From positions 9,311 through 73,310 of the forward strand of contig CALJHG010000004.1 in assembly GCA_938075585.1 (NCBI GenBank): DNA of 64,000 nt, read 5' to 3'. A program made the position numbers and the translations under genes. Below the pieces are notes generated by a model. That model saw only the letters and a program-made list of their open reading frames with translations, was not told where the DNA came from and ran no database searches. Positions 5,711 through 50,939 of the stretch are shown in pieces. This stretch comes from an uncultured Gammaproteobacteria bacterium. GTDB taxonomy: Bacteria > Pseudomonadota > Gammaproteobacteria > Ga0077536. Every line of letters starts with the position of its first letter. Position 1 is the stretch's first letter.

Positions 5711-6817
5711 ATGGAAACTCTTTATAACGTCGATGCCTCTTATTATGGGGCAAAAATCCGATCATACCTACAATATAAGGGTATACCCTTTACTGAGGTC
5801 TTGGGGGACAGAGTTGTGTTCTCGACTAAAATTTTACCCAATGTAGGGTGGCCAGTGATTCCGGTGATTCTGACAGAGTGTGGTAAGACGCTCCAAGATA
5901 CATCCGACATGATTGACCACTATGAGCTTGTCTATTCGGGAAAATCGGTGCTTCCCGAGACGGCGTCTGGTAAGGCGTTGAGTTATTGGTTAGAACTTAT
6001 TGGCGATGAATGGCTTAAGTTACCGGCGCTACACTATCGTTGGAGATATAATAGTGACTTTGCGGTACGTGAAATGGGACGGAATAATGATCCGTCTGCG
6101 ACAGCCGATGAACAGTTTCGGGTAGGAAAAAAAATAGCGAAAACTTTTCAAGATTGGTGCCCCATATACGGGATTACAGAGCATACCGGCTTATCTATAG
6201 AGACTGAGTATCTCATATTTTTGCAGCTCTTTGAAAAGCATCTCTCGGCATTTCCTTATTTGCTTGGTGGCCAGCCGTCCTTAGGTGATTTCGCATTTTT
6301 TGGTCCACTTTATGCCCATTTATACCGAGATCCTGCGTCTGGAGATTTAATGCGTGAGGCTGCTCCTGGAGTATGTGATTGGGTAATACGAATGAACAGT
6401 TTTAACTTACAACAACCGAGCGAAGGATGCGGTTGGGTTGATTTCGAGTCAATTCCTGACACGCTATCCCATTTACTGAACCATTTGTCGAGAGACTTCG
6501 TACCAGTGATTGCTGAAGAAGTGCAAGCTTTGCAATTGTGGCTCCAAAGTAGTAGCGACGTCATAATGCCGAGATATTTTGGCGATGGGGATTTCGTGAT
6601 AGGAGCCGGCGGTCCCCACGAAGTGAGCGAAAAGCGGAGACTCACCACATATGGGCAGTGGATGATGCAAAGAGTGTTGAACGTTTTTGAAAACTCTGGT
6701 GACACGGAGAGAAAAAAAATAACTCGTTTGTTTTCATGCTTCGGTGCGTGTAGGGTGCTCGATATCGTCATCTCTATTAAGTTAGGAAAGCGGAATTTCC
6801 AATTAGTTAGGGAATAG
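5711..6817 (+). CDS. glutathione S-transferase-like protein
   Basis: The N-terminus LYNVDASYYGAKIRSYLQYKGIPFTEV resembles a GST_N thioredoxin-like domain, followed by a long helical C-terminal domain. Confidence 0.45.
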   Translation: METLYNVDASYYGAKIRSYLQYKGIPFTEVLGDRVVFSTKILPNVGWPVIPVILTECGKTLQDTSDMIDHYELVYSGKSVLPETASGKALSYWLELIGDEWLKLPALHYRWRYNSDFAVREMGRNNDPSATADEQFRVGKKIAKTFQDWCPIYGITEHTGLSIETEYLIFLQLFEKHLSAFPYLLGGQPSLGDFAFFGPLYAHLYRDPASGDLMREAAPGVCDWVIRMNSFNLQQPSEGCGWVDFESIPDTLSHLLNHLSRDFVPVIAEEVQALQLWLQSSSDVIMPRYFGDGDFVIGAGGPHEVSEKRRLTTYGQWMMQRVLNVFENSGDTERKKITRLFSCFGACRVLDIVISIKLGKRNFQLVRE

Positions 6818-6868: not shown

Positions 6869-7792
6869 ATGTCTATGTCAGATGGTCTTAAGCAAAGACT
6901 CGATAACATTATAAACAGCGAAAAAATTGTTTTATTCATGAAGGGGGATCGTAACGGACCTCAATGTGGATTTTCGGCGCGTGTCGTTGGGGTTTTGGAA
7001 GAGTTGACTGATAATTACAAAACTATCGATGTGCTCTCTGATCCGGATATTAGGAATGGAATTAAGGAATATTCCGAGTGGCCCACTATTCCTCAGTTGT
7101 ACATCGAAGGAGACTTTGTGGGTGGCTGCGATGTTGTTGAGCAACTTTCCAAAACTGGTGATTTAGTGAAATTGATAGGAGAAGGAGAACCTCTGTCGCT
7201 TCCAACGATCGTGATTACTGATTCTGCTGCAGAATCTATAAGAGACGTTTGTAAGCAGCACCCCGATCTGAATGTTCATTTAAACATCACGGATGATTGG
7301 GTTCATGAATTCAACCTGGCGCCTAATTCTGGTCATGAGATAGCAGTAGTAAATAATGGGATAGAGTTATTACTTAATCGCTCCACAGCTAAAAAAACTG
7401 ATGGGCTACGAATTGATATGGAACAGACATCTGAAGGAAGCGTCTTTAGCATTACAAATCCAAATGCGCCCCCTATGGTATCTCAAATGAATGTGCATGA
7501 ATTAAAACAGCTTCAAGAGTCTGGCGATACATTTTATCTTTTTGATGTCAGAGAACAAAGTGAGAGAGATATTGCACTTATTGTTGGCTCTCGGCTCTTA
7601 AGCGAGGAGAATATAAAATTTATTGATACATTGGACCGTAACTCGATTATGATTTTCCATTGTCATACTGGGGTACGCAGTCAGTCGGCGGCTGAGTACT
7701 TCAGAGATCAAGGTTTTACGCGAGTCTATAACTTATCCGGTGGCATAGATGCGTGGTCCGTAGAGATAGATGCTGAGGTAGCTCGATATTAA
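6869..7792 (+). CDS. monothiol glutaredoxin (Grx4, CGFS) fused to a cysteine-less IscA/HesB-like domain and a rhodanese domain
   Basis: Grx4 CGFS motif near the N-terminus (KIVLFMKGDRNGPQCGFSARVVGVL). The middle region TIVITDSAAESI...SITNPNAPP aligns with IscA (ITLSDSAA...KFTNPN) but lacks the three Cys ligands. The C-terminal rhodanese domain carries the active-site CHTGVRS. Confidence 0.75.
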   Translation: MSMSDGLKQRLDNIINSEKIVLFMKGDRNGPQCGFSARVVGVLEELTDNYKTIDVLSDPDIRNGIKEYSEWPTIPQLYIEGDFVGGCDVVEQLSKTGDLVKLIGEGEPLSLPTIVITDSAAESIRDVCKQHPDLNVHLNITDDWVHEFNLAPNSGHEIAVVNNGIELLLNRSTAKKTDGLRIDMEQTSEGSVFSITNPNAPPMVSQMNVHELKQLQESGDTFYLFDVREQSERDIALIVGSRLLSEENIKFIDTLDRNSIMIFHCHTGVRSQSAAEYFRDQGFTRVYNLSGGIDAWSVEIDAEVARY

Positions 7793-16418: not shown

Positions 16419-17759
16419 TTAAGAAGCTTTAGTGAGTTTAAATACTATCGGGGACAAAAGTAATAATGCTATGAGATTTGGAAGAGCCATAAGTCCGTTA
16501 AAAATATCTGCGATAGCCCAAATTATTTCCAGTTTTACCATGGCACCAATCAATATTGCTATGATCCAAAGGGTTCGGTAGGTGAAAATAATACGACTAC
16601 CAAACAAATACTCCGCACAGCGCTCCCCATAATAACTCCAGCCGATTATTGTTGTGAAGGCAAAGACCGCGAGACATACGCTGATTAATAGGCCACCAAG
16701 CGGGCCTATGCCAGTCGTAAAGGCAAGAGCGCTAAGCGACGCCCCCTGCTCGGCGCTATCCCATGTTCCTGTCATTATTATCACGAACGCTGTTAAAGAG
16801 CAGACGCAGATGGTATCTATAAAAGTCCCTAACATGGCTATTTTACCTTGTTTTGTCGGATTGTTAGTACTTGCCGCAGCGTGAGCGATAGCAGCGCTAC
16901 CCAGACCTGCCTCGTTCGAAAAGATTCCTCTTGCGAATCCCCAGCGCATCGCTAGCCATATGGATACACCCATACCTGACTCTGTCTCAAAAGCGCTCTC
17001 GATAATTAGGCGTATCGCTCCAGGCAGTGCGGTTATATTACTTACGATAATAAAAATTGAAAAAGAAATAAAAACTAAAGCCATCAGGGGTACCACCATG
17101 CCTGCGAAGGTCGCGATTCTTTTTATACCGCCAATGATTACGATCCCAGTGAGTGTTGCTATAAACAGACCCGTCAACCATTTATCTATTGCAAAGCTCG
17201 AATGCATGACATCTGCTACGGAGTTGGATTGCACCGTATTTCCTATTCCAAAGGCGGCTATCATCCCAAAAAAAGCAAATAATATTGCCAGCCAATGCCA
17301 CTCTGGTCCTAGTCCTTTTTGAATATAATACATGGGACCGCCCATATATCGTCCTGCACTGTTAATCTCTCTGTAGTGGACGGCTAATACCGCTTCTGCA
17401 TATTTGGTTGCCATACCAAATAGTGCAATAACCCACATCCAAAAGACTGCACCAGGCCCACCGAAATGAATCGCGGTCGCTACTCCGGCAATATTTCCGG
17501 TCCCAATTGTTGCAGAGAGTGCGGTCATTAGAGCGTTAAATGGTGAAATATCACCGTTTTGTCCACCAGTTTTCTCTCTACTTTTCGCTAGAAGTCTAAA
17601 ACTTGAACGCAACTGCAACCAAGGCATGAACTTCAGGCCAACCGAAAGGTAAACTGCAACGATCGCGAGTAATGGAATTAGGAGGTATTCGCCCCAAACT
17701 AGGTGACTTATTTTAGTTAGTACACTTTCAGCGATTGAACTGAAACTAACAGTTTCCAC
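16419..17759 (-). CDS. alanine/glycine:cation symporter (AGCS family)
   Basis: 446-aa polytopic membrane protein. GDISPFNALMTALSATIGTGNIAG is the AGCS family signature region. Confidence 0.85.
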   Translation of the reverse strand: METVSFSSIAESVLTKISHLVWGEYLLIPLLAIVAVYLSVGLKFMPWLQLRSSFRLLAKSREKTGGQNGDISPFNALMTALSATIGTGNIAGVATAIHFGGPGAVFWMWVIALFGMATKYAEAVLAVHYREINSAGRYMGGPMYYIQKGLGPEWHWLAILFAFFGMIAAFGIGNTVQSNSVADVMHSSFAIDKWLTGLFIATLTGIVIIGGIKRIATFAGMVVPLMALVFISFSIFIIVSNITALPGAIRLIIESAFETESGMGVSIWLAMRWGFARGIFSNEAGLGSAAIAHAAASTNNPTKQGKIAMLGTFIDTICVCSLTAFVIIMTGTWDSAEQGASLSALAFTTGIGPLGGLLISVCLAVFAFTTIIGWSYYGERCAEYLFGSRIIFTYRTLWIIAILIGAMVKLEIIWAIADIFNGLMALPNLIALLLLSPIVFKLTKAS

Positions 17760-18346
17760 TATAATATTTTCCCATGTTGTTTTTTTATTATAAGTTCATT
17801 GCCGGTTTGCGCGAATGTTAGGCGCTCTAGGAAGCTCATGCCGAGTAGAGCATGCATGTCACCCAATGAAGGCACTATTACCGCTCGGACATCATGTTCC
17901 TCTATTTGCCCTAATTGTAGACTTATTATATTTGCTGACCAGCCTTTTGTTTGGCCGTTAGCTGTCATGATAGTGACCTTTCTTTTTTTCTTTATACCCG
18001 CTTTTATCGCAAGTTTTTCAGAAACGACTACATCAGTGGCGCCAGTATCCACCAAAAACTGGACTAATTGGCCGTTTATTTTCCCCCTCGCTATGTAGTG
18101 GCCGGAGCGACTTTTCAAGAGACGAACTCCAATGTCTCCAGTTTTAGTTTCAAATGCACTCGTCTCGTGGAACGTGTTTTTTTTGTGAGTAGAATACTGC
18201 GAAAATAACCAAGTTAGCATACCTAACAATAGTGCGAAGGCCGCTAGGTACATTATAAATCCGAACCGTTGTGTCGACATAGTGTGATTATAAAACGAAT
18301 TGACGCCAGCATGTTTTTTTTGTTCGTCAAATGTTAGTCTAAACAA
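17759..18346 (-). CDS. retropepsin-like aspartic protease, membrane-anchored (TIGR02281 type)
   Basis: N-terminal transmembrane helix followed by FLVDTGATDVVVS (D-T/S-G-A catalytic motif). Overlaps the symporter stop by 1 nt. Confidence 0.75.
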   Translation of the reverse strand: MFRLTFDEQKKHAGVNSFYNHTMSTQRFGFIMYLAAFALLLGMLTWLFSQYSTHKKNTFHETSAFETKTGDIGVRLLKSRSGHYIARGKINGQLVQFLVDTGATDVVVSEKLAIKAGIKKKRKVTIMTANGQTKGWSANIISLQLGQIEEHDVRAVIVPSLGDMHALLGMSFLERLTFAQTGNELIIKKQHGKIL

Positions 18347-22871: not shown

Positions 22872-24056
22872 CTAGGTCTTAGGATCATAACCTGCTTCAT
22901 TGGGGAACCCTTTAATATCAGGGGCAGGGTAGTAACGTTTCTCGCCCAAGGCATCCACACGATCAAAAAAATCTTGATCTGCGGCTAGTCCCATTACTTC
23001 GCCAATATCCCGAAGGTTCATTGCTTGTCGAAACATGTTCCAGGAGTCTGGGTGTAGGTTTATCGCAGTGGCTAAAAACTTATCGCCTTCCGCTTCCTTC
23101 CCATTCAGACGTAAGTAAACGCCGAGGTGGAAGTTGGCATGAGCTAAGGCTATTGATTTAGATGGCAATTGCATGTGTCGCTTGGCAGCATCGGTATCAT
23201 ACGCATTTTCTGCGATAGCCCCATTTATCGCCCAATCTTTTACAGCATCCAGATAAGTTGTTTGCGCTCTTGAAGCCAAATCTAGCGCCTCGTCCGTTTG
23301 AGAGAAGTCTTGTCTGTTCATAGAACGAAATGCATCGTGAGATCCCGCGGTCTCACTCGGTCTTACTATTTTCCCGAATTCATCAATCCATACCGCATTA
23401 GGAACATTTACCATATTGTAGAGATCTGCCACCTGATGGGTTTGATCAATAAGACAAAGATAGCTCGGGTTAGCTTCGTCTATGAATTCTCGCGCTGTTT
23501 CCGCACCTCTGCTTTCTTGAGCGACTGCGATAATTAGAAAGTCATCGTTTCCAACTTCATCATACATAGCTTGCCACACGGGCAAGTCATGTCTGCATCC
23601 TCACCAGGACGACCAGGTTGTTAAAAAGATACGTTTTCCCCGATAGTCCGAAAGTGAGTGAAACTCTCCATCGAGATCTGGCAATCTGAAGTCCGGCGCC
23701 TCGAGAGAAGTGAGTTTTTCTGATCGCTCTTTATATCCTGCTCCCAGCAACCATGTTTCTCTCGTTTCGTCATATAAGACAGGTTTCTCCATTAAGCGCC
23801 AAAATTGCGACACATTTAGATGCTTATTCTCTAGGAACCCTGTTTCGGTATCACTCGGATATGGGATACATTTCTCGTCTTGACACAAGCCTTCAGGCTT
23901 CATAGTCCAACCGAGCTTTTGCTCAACATCTTTCCTAGTTAACCAAAGATCGTTATCTTTTATTTGCGCGTTAACAGCTAGAGTTTGATGTTCGTGAATA
24001 ACTGTGACCATTTTCATATCCTTGGGCGTGATAATTGGGTTAACTGTACTCTTCAT
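22872..24056 (-). CDS. candidate selenoprotein: AhpC/TSA-redoxin family thiol-disulfide oxidoreductase with N- and C-terminal extra domains, in-frame TGA (Sec) at 23601-23603
   Basis: ORFs 23601..24056 and 22872..23585 are in the same frame, separated only by a TGA. The junction reads ...APDFRLPDLDGEFHSLSDYRGKRIFLTTWSSW-[TGA]-GCRHDLPVWQAMYDEVGNDDFLIIAVAQE... This is one continuous redoxin domain, with TGA at the first Cys of the WCxxC-type motif. A SECIS-like hairpin sits 14 nt downstream. Confidence 0.6.
23565..23591 (-). promoter_or_regulatory. SECIS-like mRNA stem-loop downstream of in-frame UGA
   Basis: On the mRNA, UGA is followed by ggaugcaga, then cauga-CUUGCC-CGUGU-GGCAAG-cuaug. This is a perfect 6-bp upper stem with a 5-nt loop containing GU, a 3-4 bp lower stem with one mismatch, and an apical loop about 20-25 nt after UGA. 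Core at 23570..23586. Confidence 0.45.
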
Positions 24057-45353: not shown

Positions 45354-45863
45354 ACCTAAATAAGTTCATTGAGAGCGTTAGCCGGTCCTGTTGGAATGAG
45401 TATACTGTAAGGTAATCGAAGTAATACGGTGTGTCTAACACACTGCTAACAAATACGAATATCTCTTCTCAGGTCGAAAGTGACAAACCCTTGAATTGAT
45501 TTTTCTTCTTTTACGACTTTTTGTTAGAACCAGGCTACATCAAATAATTTCTTAGCTTTAATGTTTAAATGAAAATATTTGGTATGCCTTTTGAGGAGGC
45601 GATAGGTGATTTTTTCGGAGCATTTATTAGCTTCTAGTGAACATCATCGTGAGGCAAATATGTCACGGGAGGCTCAATACTATACCCGGCCTCTCTCAGG
45701 CAAAGGTTTTTATTGCTTCTAGCCACCATAACACCAAATGATTTGACAGATACAATTTCAGAAATTGGCGATATTGTCATAAAGTGCCGGTTCTCTTCCG
45801 GATTATAGATAGTGCCCTTCACCAATGAGGCTGATTTTTCATCGGAGTTTGATTTTTCCGATA

Positions 45864-46391
45864 CTACTTTTTACGCCTCTCTACATTCAGAGCGACTAAA
45901 TTGGATTCTATATCTTTCCCAGCGTTCATTAGGTTAATTTTTTTATCAATTTTCACGAGTCTGCCATCTTTACCAATATAAAAAGTCCATCTTTTGGCAA
46001 ACCCAATCACGGACTTAACCCCATACCGGTTTGCAACTAGGCCACCAGGGTCACTTAATATAGGGAAATCGGCGTTATTTTTTCTAGCGAACTTTGTATT
46101 TGTTTCATGATCGTCGGTACTTGCCATAAAGTATGCCACTTCGAAATCTTTTAGTATTGGACCACTCTCACGGAGGGATTTACATTCGATTGTTCAGCCT
46201 CCGGTAAACGCTTTCGGAAACCAGGCGATAACCACTGCGGAACCTATGTAGTCACTTAGCCTATGAGTTTTGCCATCCGAACCGATCATTTCAAAGTTTG
46301 GGGCGAAATCACCGACAGCAACGGTATCTTCTGCCCACGTCGGGTTTGTAATATTTAGGGCCGCTAAAACAAAGGCGATTATGTTTTTCAA
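45864..46391 (-). CDS. candidate selenoprotein: periplasmic peroxiredoxin (Prx/Bcp-like) with in-frame TGA (Sec) at 46194-46196 in place of the peroxidatic Cys
   Basis: ORFs 46194..46391 and 45864..46139 are in one frame. The junction reads ...GDFAPNFEMIGSDGKTHRLSDYIGSAVVIAWFPKAFTGG-[TGA]-TIECKSLRESGPILKDFEVAYFMASTDDHETNTKFARKNNADFPILSDP... The universal Prx PxxxTxxC motif reads PKAFTGG-U, with a resolving Cys four residues later. N-terminal signal peptide. SECIS-like hairpin 16 nt downstream. Confidence 0.6.
46162..46177 (-). promoter_or_regulatory. SECIS-like mRNA stem-loop downstream of in-frame UGA
   Basis: On the mRNA: UGA-acaaucgaauguaaau-CCCUC-CGUGA-GAG(U)GG. A 5-bp stem with one bulged U and a 5-nt loop CGUGA, 16 nt after UGA. 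The loop shares CGUG with the hairpin at 23570..23586. Confidence 0.4.
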
Positions 46392-46468
46392 ACTACTTTA
46401 CCTCTAAGATTGTTCAAATTTTTTGCATAACTTAGGTCCGCCATACACGCTGACACCTACCGCGTTGC

Positions 46469-47824
46469 TTAAGAACTGGGCTCTCTCATAGTAACCCATT
46501 CTTCAGCACTGGTCGGATGAATACCAATAGTACTATCAAACATAGCTTTTGTAGCACCAGCTTTTAAAGCGATTGCTAACCCTTGGATGCTCTCTCCTGC
46601 ATCGGGGCCCACCATGTGAGCTCCTATAACCTTATCGTTCGCTTTATTAACGACGAGTTTCATTAGTGTCTTTTCTGTATTTCCCGAAAGCGTATTTTTA
46701 AGCGCGCGAAAAGAAGATTTAAAAACACTAATTTCTGAAAAATTTTGTCTCGCAGATTCTTCGGTGTAGCCGACGCATGCGAGATTAGGCTGACTAAATA
46801 CCGCGCACGGAATGTTTTCATAGCTAACTGGACGACTGCGATCTTGATATAGGTGCGCGACTAGAGCCATCCCTTCTGCCAAAGCCACTGGCGTTAAATT
46901 GACTCGATTGGTTACATCGCCAATAGCGTAAATTGACTCGACATTCGTTTGATAATTGCTGTTGACTATAATGGCATTAGCGGCATCAGTTTCTACACCA
47001 CATGAGTCAAGTCCAAGATTTGAAGTGAGAGGGCTCCTGCCAGTCGCGTACATAGCTGCGTCTGTTTTGATCATCTGCCCATCTTTCAGTTTCACATGTA
47101 GTCCGTCAGCATTTTTCTCAATTGCGCTAATATCATTATCAAACTGGAGATTTACCCCTTTATTCCCCATTTCTTCCGATAAAAACACTCTCGCGTCTAG
47201 GTCGAATCCGCGTAGAAACATGGAACCACGATAAATTTGCGTAGTTTCGCAACCGAGCCCATTGAATATTCCAGCGAATTCTGTAGCAATATACCCGCCG
47301 CCAACTACTAAAACTTTTTTAGGAAGTTGTTTTAGGAAGAAAGCCTCATTAGAGCTAAATACATGCTCGTTCCCAGGGAACTGAGGTATAAATGGTTCAC
47401 CGCCCGTTGCTATCAGGATTCTATCTGCACTGTAGACGTGACCGCCTACCGAAACTTCATGAGGACCAACTATCGTAGCGTGGTCAAGAAGTATTTTTAC
47501 ACCAGAATTTTCCAGTAGCCTTTGGTAGATTTTATTGAGACGCTCGATCTCTATATTCTTATTTTCTACTAAGCGAGCCCAGTTGAAATTAGCTTCTTTT
47601 ATACCCCACCCATAACCCACTGTATCATCGAATTCCTCGCGCATATGGGCCGCATAAGAAAATAGCTTCTTAGGAATGCACCCAACATTGACGCAGGTCC
47701 CTCCGAGGCTGGCCTTTTCCGCAATAGCTACTTTAACACCCAAATCAGCTGCGAAGCGAGAAGCTCTGACTCCACCAGATCCGGCTCCAATGGTGAATAG
47801 ATCAAAGTCATATTTTTTTTTCAT
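46469..47824 (-). CDS. gor: glutathione-disulfide reductase
   Basis: FAD motif GAGSGG, redox-active disulfide GGTCVNVGCIPKK, and C-terminal IGIHPTSAEEWVTMR, matching E. coli Gor. Probable start MKKKYDFDLF at 47824. The ORF track extends to an upstream ATG at 47920. Confidence 0.85.
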   Translation of the reverse strand: MKKKYDFDLFTIGAGSGGVRASRFAADLGVKVAIAEKASLGGTCVNVGCIPKKLFSYAAHMREEFDDTVGYGWGIKEANFNWARLVENKNIEIERLNKIYQRLLENSGVKILLDHATIVGPHEVSVGGHVYSADRILIATGGEPFIPQFPGNEHVFSSNEAFFLKQLPKKVLVVGGGYIATEFAGIFNGLGCETTQIYRGSMFLRGFDLDARVFLSEEMGNKGVNLQFDNDISAIEKNADGLHVKLKDGQMIKTDAAMYATGRSPLTSNLGLDSCGVETDAANAIIVNSNYQTNVESIYAIGDVTNRVNLTPVALAEGMALVAHLYQDRSRPVSYENIPCAVFSQPNLACVGYTEESARQNFSEISVFKSSFRALKNTLSGNTEKTLMKLVVNKANDKVIGAHMVGPDAGESIQGLAIALKAGATKAMFDSTIGIHPTSAEEWVTMREPSS

Positions 47825-48027
47825 AATGAATGTGGTTCCTTCGACTAGAGCTGAAAAATAAAGGTGCGATATGTGAATGCAGTTTAAAGGGTCAAATATA
47901 TTATTATCAATTGTTTTCATCGAGACAAGAGGTGAGGCGGAGTAAGTGGCTTAGTATGTGCTTGCGATTTTTAAATTTTTTTACCTGTGCTAGGTTATAT
48001 AGATAAACTGTAACAATAGGGACTAAT

Positions 48028-50063: not shown

Positions 50064-50939
50064 TTGAAGAAAAGAAAAACCAAGAAAAAGACTCGATTGC
50101 AGTCACACGAAAGCGAGAGCAGGAATAGGGCTGTAAGGCAACCTAATTGGCTGCTATTCGCTATTGCTGCACTTGGACTTATTGTTACCGGTGTTTTACT
50201 TTGGGGTTCCTTTAACCAAACTGTTTTGCCTTACTGCAGCACATCTTCAGGTTGCGACGTGATACAAAAGAGTGCTTGGTCACAGTTCCTCGGAGTACCT
50301 TTAGCTGCATGGGGCGGGCTTACCTATGCTGTATTATTGATTTGTTCGCTGGATTGGTTAGGGCAACGTGCGTCCCGTAAAATTTCAGTATTTATTGCAT
50401 CTGCAGGTTTTTTTATTAGTTGCTATTTAACTGCTGTGGGATACTTTTATCTACACGCCTTTTGCCAGTACTGTCTTATATCCTTGGTTTTGATAGCTTC
50501 TATTTTTATAATTTCACTTCGGGATAACAGAAGACGAGAACGGCGTTGGTTTTATTTCGGTGGTGCGGCAGCTATATTTGTTGTTTTGATAATGCAAAGC
50601 GCTAATGGCGATAAAGCACTATTTGGATCGCGTGAGGATCCTGAATTAACCGCTCTTGCCAATCACCTTTCCGAGCAAGGTTTTACGTTTTATGGAGCGA
50701 GTTGGTGTAATGCTTGCCAAGAGCAAAAGAAATTAGTCGGCGGATCGTCGGAGTATCTCCCATATGTGGAATGCTCAAAATACGGCCAAAATGGGCCGAG
50801 CACTACCGAATGTCAGTTGCAAGAAATTCGTAATTATCCGACTTGGCTCATTAATGGTCGGAGGTTTGAATATGTGCTATCGGTAGAGAGATTGAAAGGG
50901 CTCTCGGGCTTTAAGTACGAGCAAGCTGACCCTAAATAG
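50064..50939 (+). CDS. vitamin K epoxide reductase (VKOR) homologue fused to a C-terminal thioredoxin-like domain
   Basis: Membrane domain with a loop Cys pair (CSTSSGC), the TYA motif, and an in-membrane CQYC active site. Then a soluble domain with WCNAC (FYGASWCNACQEQKKLV). Confidence 0.75.
   Translation: MKKRKTKKKTRLQSHESESRNRAVRQPNWLLFAIAALGLIVTGVLLWGSFNQTVLPYCSTSSGCDVIQKSAWSQFLGVPLAAWGGLTYAVLLICSLDWLGQRASRKISVFIASAGFFISCYLTAVGYFYLHAFCQYCLISLVLIASIFIISLRDNRRRERRWFYFGGAAAIFVVLIMQSANGDKALFGSREDPELTALANHLSEQGFTFYGASWCNACQEQKKLVGGSSEYLPYVECSKYGQNGPSTTECQLQEIRNYPTWLINGRRFEYVLSVERLKGLSGFKYEQADPK

Follow-up and report, generated by a model that had tools for sequence, protein, structure and literature searches.

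A peroxiredoxin gene interrupted by an in-frame TGA

The window analysed here is the whole 64,000-nucleotide stretch of gammaproteobacterial DNA. Its ORF listing contains two minus-strand open reading frames, 46194..46391 (65 aa, TTG start) and 45864..46139 (91 aa), that lie in the same frame. Translation of 45864..46391 gave a single 175-codon frame whose sole internal stop is the TGA at 46194–46196, in the context AWFPKAFTGG*TIECKSLRESG. The initial annotation had described two same-frame ORFs split by one TGA, and it proved exact in both coordinates and frame. The TTG start is retained in the close relatives L009–L011. The N-terminus of the read-through product, MKNIIAFVLAALNITNPTWA followed by ED, contains one K, a hydrophobic core and T-W-A at positions −3 to −1, and a hydrophobic, non-conserved N-terminal extension is present in all of the 14 full-length homologues aligned. 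With this predicted N-terminal signal peptide, the protein is probably exported. The features of the locus are listed in Table 1.

Table 1. Features of the peroxiredoxin locus, and the second UGA-containing gene, in window coordinates.
Feature	Position	Strand	Description	Basis
Complete CDS, probable selenoprotein	45864..46391	−	175 codons + TAG stop, TTG start; BCP/PrxQ-like peroxiredoxin with U66, export predicted	frame, PF00578, model, dN/dS
Shine-Dalgarno-like AGAGGT	46400..46405	−	8 nt upstream of the TTG start; putative function	read from sequence
Predicted Sec-type signal peptide	46332..46391	−	residues 1–20, predicted cleavage before ED	sequence features
UGA codon 66, probable selenocysteine	46194..46196	−	peroxidatic position of PxxxTxxU	aligns with invariant Cys; TGA at 27/80 loci; kept in 6 assemblies
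Codon 70, TGT (Cys)	46182..46184	−	candidate resolving Cys, four residues after U66	invariant in homologue alignment and in all motif contexts of the 80-locus scan
SECIS-like hairpin within the CDS	46161..46179	−	5' arm 46173–46179, loop CGUGA 46168–46172, 3' arm 46161–46167; codons S72-L-R-E-S-G77	
Glutathione-reductase-like (gor-like) flavoprotein disulfide reductase	46469..47920	−	upstream, 77 nt from the peroxiredoxin start	Pfam Pyr_redox_2 / Pyr_redox_dim
ResA-like WAxxUGC protein, probable second selenoprotein gene	22872..24056	−	UGA 23601–23603; 394-aa read-through	PF00578, NF041054, hairpin

All public gene callers split the peroxiredoxin locus, and only an 87-aa fragment, named 'peroxiredoxin Q/BCP', is reported. 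A JGI protein of 175 aa from a 911-bp contig (P0141) shares a 90% cluster with window 45864..46127(−). It was considered as a Cys variant of the peroxiredoxin and ruled out, the residue at position 66 being W. This W66 is best explained as a code-4 (TGA = Trp) gene call on a short contig.

The order of the gor-like gene and the peroxiredoxin gene is kept in relatives, and the two genes may be co-transcribed, judging from their arrangement. A functional link between them is not obvious because the reductase would be cytoplasmic. On the other side, a MatE gene is convergent with the peroxiredoxin gene, and the 510 bp between them (45354..45863) gave no convincing ORF and no Rfam match. This interval includes an indel of about 211 bp (45621..45831) that is present in the window and in L010 and absent from L009 and L091. 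Short direct repeats, TGATTTTT(T/C)CG, were seen at 45607 and 45850; the indel itself lacks clear terminal repeats and occurs only once in the window. Promoter and terminator scans around the peroxiredoxin gene returned counts at the level of shuffled sequence. A VKOR-family gene at 50064..50939 (+) has a TTG start and encodes 291 aa, while its orthologue in the relatives L091–L093 is called at 337 aa; the start may have been miscalled or the N-terminus may be different. The VKOR neighbourhood is redox-rich, with the gor-like and peroxiredoxin genes, and elsewhere in the window lie a GST-like gene (5711..6817) and a glutaredoxin-rhodanese fusion (6869..7792). At 17759..18346 (−), adjoining a Na/alanine symporter gene, lies a gene for a small protein whose domains are of the retropepsin-like aspartic protease type (PF00077 RVP, PF13650, PF13975).

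The read-through product has the sequence and predicted fold of a BCP/PrxQ-like peroxiredoxin

When the stop was replaced by Cys, the read-through product matched the Pfam AhpC-TSA profile PF00578 over positions 1–123 of 124, scoring 93.7 bits (cut-off 26; E 1.1e-26). No NCBIfam model reached its cut-off with this protein. The nearest ones were BCP (the E. coli Bcp equivalog NF006960; 73 bits, cut-off 140) and PrxQ (NF053650; 68.7 bits, cut-off 260), and the selenoprotein model PrxU (NF040737) scored 41.5 bits, below its equivalog threshold of 270. BCP/PrxQ is the closest subfamily, yet the peroxiredoxin is not an equivalog of it.

In an alignment of 14 full-length database homologues (49–57% identity), the column of the stop is Cys in 14/14 sequences, and P59, T63, R134 and C70 are likewise invariant. 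The initial annotation had placed the TGA on the catalytic residue, with a resolving Cys four residues later. The alignment bears out both positions, and C70 may indeed be the resolving residue. In BCP/PrxQ proteins of the 2-Cys type this residue is expected at +5; here the Cys lies at +4 (U-T-I-E-C) and is invariant in the family.

An AlphaFold (AF2) model built on the homologue alignment had a mean pLDDT of 91.1 and a pTM of 0.83. The pLDDT was 52–56 for residues 1–20 and at least 90 afterwards, and residue 66 directly precedes a helix formed by residues 68–80. Foldseek searches of the PDB with this model returned Bcp1 (3drn), BcpB (5epf), AhpE, PrxQ and Prx1 as top matches, all with a probability of 1.00 and a target-normalised TM of about 0.8. 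The PDB sequence search agrees with the fold search, with 3drn at E 9e-19 and 35% identity. Together, the PF00578 profile, the PxxxTxxU motif, the catalytic Arg and the thioredoxin-like Prx fold of the model indicate that the protein is a peroxiredoxin. These data agree with the initial proposal that reading through the TGA yields one Prx fold preceded by a signal peptide, the latter being predicted from the sequence.

The TGA codon is conserved and the downstream codons are under purifying selection

The protein encoded by the neighbouring MatE gene was located on 22 public contigs, and six independent assemblies (ENA, one NCBI MAG and Logan) span the peroxiredoxin locus. The TGA is present in all six, at more than 99.8% identity, which serves as a proxy for resequencing. 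Seven population SNPs were found inside the ORF, five of them synonymous. We then scanned for the peroxiredoxin at the species level, using one genome per species, and obtained 80 loci. The three close gammaproteobacterial relatives (L009–L011; 95, 94 and 85% protein identity) all carry the TGA. Between the window gene and that of the 85% relative, dS is 0.86–1.05, close to saturation, and dN/dS is 0.08 for codons 1–65 and 0.066 for codons 67–175. Against L009–L011, dN/dS is 0.03–0.14 across both halves (0.06–0.14 for codons 67–175), with dS up to about 1. The low dN/dS after the TGA shows that the downstream part is translated and under selection.

At the peroxidatic column, TGA was found in 27 of the 80 loci, which comprise the three Gammaproteobacteria and members of Acidobacteriota/Vicinamibacteria, Planctomycetota and Verrucomicrobiota. 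TGC or TGT was found in 53 copies from 51 loci, two of which also bear a TGA copy, and in 2/80 loci the motif was not found. In the two loci with both forms, L027 (2540, 3127) and L071 (884, 1498), the Cys-type and Sec-type copies lie about 600 bp apart on MAG contigs and look like a paralogue pair (Sec, selenocysteine). These contigs are labelled Bifidobacteriaceae, and their sequences group with the Acidobacteriota type. In a rough neighbour-joining distance tree of the 80 loci and the window, the Cys forms L016/L032 and L067/L068/L079 nest within a mostly-Sec group. In the same tree, the gammaproteobacterial Sec clade does not group with the Cys forms found in K189A and Pseudomonadales MAGs, which are also marine Gammaproteobacteria. 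The topology hints at Sec-to-Cys reversions and possibly at horizontal transfer.

A hairpin downstream of the UGA co-varies in the Sec forms

In the window, the sequence after the UGA can form the hairpin CCCUC-CGUGA-GAG(U)GG. Its 5-bp stem begins 16 nt after the UGA (14 nt in the 7-bp register of the family) and its CGUGA loop 21 nt after it. The initial annotation had claimed a stem-loop with a CGUGA loop at 16 nt. The element exists, but in the window sequence alone it is less convincing than that claim implied: the 71-nt fold has −7.7 kcal/mol, its z-score is +1.35, and of the 200 shuffles 189 gave a fold at least as good. The 36-nt core has −3.7 kcal/mol and contains either a C.U mismatch (3+3 bp) or 5 bp with a bulged U. 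The bacterial SECIS (bSECIS) model has a 3–9-nt apical loop, a G in the first two loop positions followed by G/U, and 16–37 nt between UGA and loop (PMC13188914, Fig. 2). The window hairpin fits this geometry: its 5-nt CGUGA loop has a G in second place and a U after it, and lies 21 nt after the UGA. For stability, the same model sets an upper stem of 4–16 bp and a minimum free energy of −7.5 kcal/mol or lower (PMC13188914). The family consensus has 7 bp and about −11 kcal/mol. The hairpins of the window and its three relatives are the weakest of the family, so that the window copy is only borderline for stability, and its energy reaches −7.5 kcal/mol or falls short of it according to how much flanking sequence is folded.

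A loose scan of the window (TGA, 17–26 nt, a CGUGN loop on a stem of 3 bp or more) returned 3 matches, where 3.2 are expected from shuffled sequences, so that the hairpin motif has no predictive power by itself. Even so, two of the three are the two Sec codons described in this work.

Comparative data make the window hairpin credible where the single sequence does no better than chance. A hairpin occupies this position in every Sec-type locus, typically GUCGCUC-CGUGA-GAGCGGC with about −11 kcal/mol, whereas no common structure was found there in the Cys-type loci. In an alignment of the 27 Sec-type sequences, 94% of the cells of the 7-bp helix are paired, and this value falls to 32–65% in slid registers. 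At four of its seven pairs both partners have changed in compensation (G-C to A-U, C-G to G-C, C-G to U-A), the covariation score of the helix was reached by 0/500 shuffles, and RNAalifold independently predicted the same 7-bp helix. Third-position entropy at the codons Leu-Arg-Glu (+7 to +9) is 0.2–0.5 bit in the Sec forms versus 1.65–1.77 in the Cys forms, while the codons flanking the hairpin are equally variable in both sets. That these synonymous sites are frozen only in the Sec forms shows that selection acts on the RNA and not on the peptide alone. The peptide KSLRESG is common to the Sec forms because the RNA hairpin is under selection. The close relatives have TGA rather than TGC or TGT, together with a hairpin conserved with covariation, and the comparison that had been proposed in the initial annotation thus speaks for its selenoprotein reading.

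A second UGA-containing redox gene and the genetic code of the window

The pattern is repeated in a second gene, as had been noticed initially. At 22872..24056 (−) the context of the TGA is FLTTWSSW*GCRHDLP, which reads as the motif W-S-S-W-U-G-C. The read-through product matched PF00578 (E 8e-16) and nearly the whole of the curated selenoprotein model NF041054 (WAxxUGC_long), with 267 bits and E 2.7e-79; this score is just below the 300-bit cut-off, the query having Cys in place of Sec. A hairpin, CUUGCC-CGUGU-GGCAAG (23570–23586), forms 6 bp and starts 14 nt after the UGA, so loop type and spacing are alike in the two genes. Gene callers split this gene as well, into pieces of 151 and 231 aa, neither with a Pfam match. 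A read of the Global Ocean Sampling (GOS) set, JCVI_READ_1095963304198, matches it exactly over the aligned length. Two UGAs at redox-Cys positions within 64 kb, each with a hairpin of the same type, argue that the organism decodes Sec.

No selA, selB, selD or tRNA-Sec was seen in about 84 kb (the window and 10 kb on each side). In the window and 29 loci, Rfam found only tRNAs and ARAGORN no tRNA-Sec. The absence of sel genes says little, because 84 kb is a small part of a genome that is probably larger than 2 Mb. In the window, TGA is the ordinary stop of 7 of the 54 large ORFs. A release-factor gene (Pfam PCRF/RF-1) followed by lysS lies about 5 kb left of the window start (4739..7234 in L089/L090). 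Pfam shows PCRF/RF-1 domains only, and from its position and length we read the gene as prfB (RF2). The TGA stops and the release-factor gene indicate that the code is not reassigned. The release-factor gene is called at 325 aa, a length that would fit a programmed +1 frameshift, as prfB usually carries.

Interpretation of the locus

We consider it very probable that the locus is one gene, encoding a 175-residue pre-protein in which UGA codon 66 is recoded to selenocysteine. The conservation of the UGA and of the hairpin and the purifying selection downstream support what had at first been annotated as a candidate selenoprotein. Recognition of a hairpin by SelB and Sec-tRNASec is the standard route of bacterial Sec insertion. 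By analogy, SelB-GTP-Sec-tRNASec would bind the hairpin with the CGUGA loop inside the coding sequence, and the complex would deliver Sec when the UGA occupies the ribosomal A site. Removal of the signal peptide on export would leave a mature BCP/PrxQ-type protein about 155 residues long. Sec66 would attack the peroxide, aided by P59, T63 and R134, and Cys70 could resolve the selenenic acid to a selenenylsulfide, which a thiol reductant would presumably recycle.

Other explanations of the interrupted frame were weighed against this one. In a pseudogene, a Cys codon would have mutated to TGA and the downstream part would be left untranslated; a single base change (TGC or TGT to TGA) is enough, and the public calls, with the locus always split and an 87-aa fragment as the only product, fit such a decay. 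But the TGA persists across species at dS of about 1, the 109 codons after it remain in frame at the low dN/dS given above, and the same TGA, accompanied by a co-varying hairpin, recurs in 27 loci from four phyla. All this makes a pseudogene very improbable. The two pieces might instead be separate functional polypeptides, an exported peptide of 65 aa and a C-terminal fragment of 87–91 aa, since both are ORFs with possible start codons. Neither holds a complete Prx fold, however; in the model one compact domain runs across the junction, the separate pieces would lack the catalytic residue, no Shine-Dalgarno sequence or conserved start was found after the TGA, and the Cys homologues are single chains. 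This arrangement is extremely improbable. A sequencing or assembly error at the TGA codon draws on the general prior that metagenome assemblies contain errors, while the codon is identical in six independent assemblies (ENA, NCBI, Logan) and in three other species, and we give it next to no weight. The same negligible weight goes to a genome-wide reassignment of UGA to Trp or Gly (code 4 or 25). The W at position 66 of P0141 would agree with it, but TGA ends 7 of 54 large ORFs, the release-factor gene read as prfB lies in the flank, the position is an invariant catalytic Cys in the homologues and never Trp or Gly, and no in-frame TGAs were seen at the Trp or Gly positions of housekeeping genes.

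A further reading is a SECIS-dependent recoding of the UGA in which a tRNA-Sec-like tRNA charged with Cys inserts Cys or, as a variant, a low-level near-cognate read-through. Such Cys-inserting systems have reportedly been described, by Mukai et al. in 2016. The hairpin and the conservation of the UGA would look identical in that case, and the roughly 84 kb covered showed none of the Sec machinery. Such systems are rare, on the other hand, and both the peroxiredoxin family and the family of the second gene are curated or published as selenoproteins. Moreover, the Cys forms use TGC or TGT, and a UGA with a hairpin would bring no obvious benefit for inserting Cys. We therefore regard Cys insertion as quite unlikely, and it is equally unlikely that the lineage decodes UGA without the canonical Sec machinery.

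With UGA 66 read as selenocysteine, the gene is a new, mis-annotated member of an already catalogued marine selenoprotein family. Biologically it holds nothing unexpected. Sec in place of Cys at the peroxidatic position of a Prx has been known since 2001 and the family has been in marine catalogues since 2005–2008. It does give a marine Sec-peroxiredoxin a genomic anchor, in an uncultured gammaproteobacterial lineage of the surface ocean whose genome is apparently small. Public gene calls consistently mishandle it, as an 87-aa fragment or with Trp under code 4, and mishandle the second selenoprotein too. The 27 TGA loci, the 51 TGC/TGT loci and the co-varying hairpin are a good seed for a curated family and a SECIS model. 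More tentatively, the proteins with AFTGG-U-TxEC-KSLRESG might constitute a separate, exported subfamily (U-x3-C) of the BCP-like selenoperoxidases, one for which no curated model exists, with the Sec codon and the SECIS travelling as a unit and SLRESG fixed by the hairpin in four phyla; the separation of the gammaproteobacterial copy from the Cys-type copies would fit horizontal transfer. This proposal is possible but, in our estimate, doubtful.

Comparison with known systems

The closest fold and sequence matches are the BCP/PrxQ proteins (E. coli Bcp, NF006960; S. solfataricus Bcp1, 3drn; M. tuberculosis BcpB, 5epf), which have a Prx fold of monomer size and the same catalytic P, T and R residues. 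They carry Cys rather than Sec and have no signal peptide, whereas the window protein has U66 and a predicted signal peptide. Where their resolving Cys lies in helix alpha2 it is at +5, and in the alignment with 3drn the C70 of the window protein lies one residue before it. PrxU of Eubacterium acidaminophilum (Sohling et al. 2001; NF040737) is the characterised precedent for Sec at the peroxidatic position of PxxxTxxU, and a 2026 review that cites it places Prx (TxxU) among the experimentally supported prokaryotic selenoproteins. It belongs to a different Prx subfamily, as the score of 41.5 against 270 bits indicates, and comes from a strict anaerobe. It is not known to have a signal peptide or a Cys at +4. 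As for the hairpin, the SECIS elements of E. coli fdhF and fdnG and the bSECIS consensus (PMC13188914) also lie within the coding sequence downstream of the UGA and have a small loop with G and U at positions 2 and 3. The window hairpin differs from fdhF and fdnG in sequence and in its short stem, which has 7 bp across the family and, in the window, either 3+3 bp around a mismatch or 5 bp and a bulged U.

The Prx selenoproteins of the GOS and Sargasso Sea catalogues share the Pfam family, the TxxU motif and the surface-ocean habitat with the window gene. The GOS selenoproteome lists 'Prx, pfam00578, TxxU' (253 sequences) and 'Prx-like (UGC-containing)' (46 sequences) (Zhang & Gladyshev, PLoS Genet 2008, PMC2398784). 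The latter is the equivalent of NF041054 and the counterpart of the second gene, 22 kb from the peroxiredoxin. The exact window peroxiredoxin was not found among the GOS supplement sequences searched. Its reads JCVI_READ_1090630 and 1576641 give WFPKAFTGGUTAECKSLRESGE.. against WFPKAFTGGUTIECKSLRESGP.. in the window (PMC2398784), in line with the initial annotation, which had not taken the class to be new. Each GOS entry is one read that lacks genome context, whereas the window gene is seen in the 64-kb context of a gammaproteobacterial MAG lineage. Since family and motif are already in GOS, this kind of protein is known, and the signature of the subfamily has been in print since 2008.
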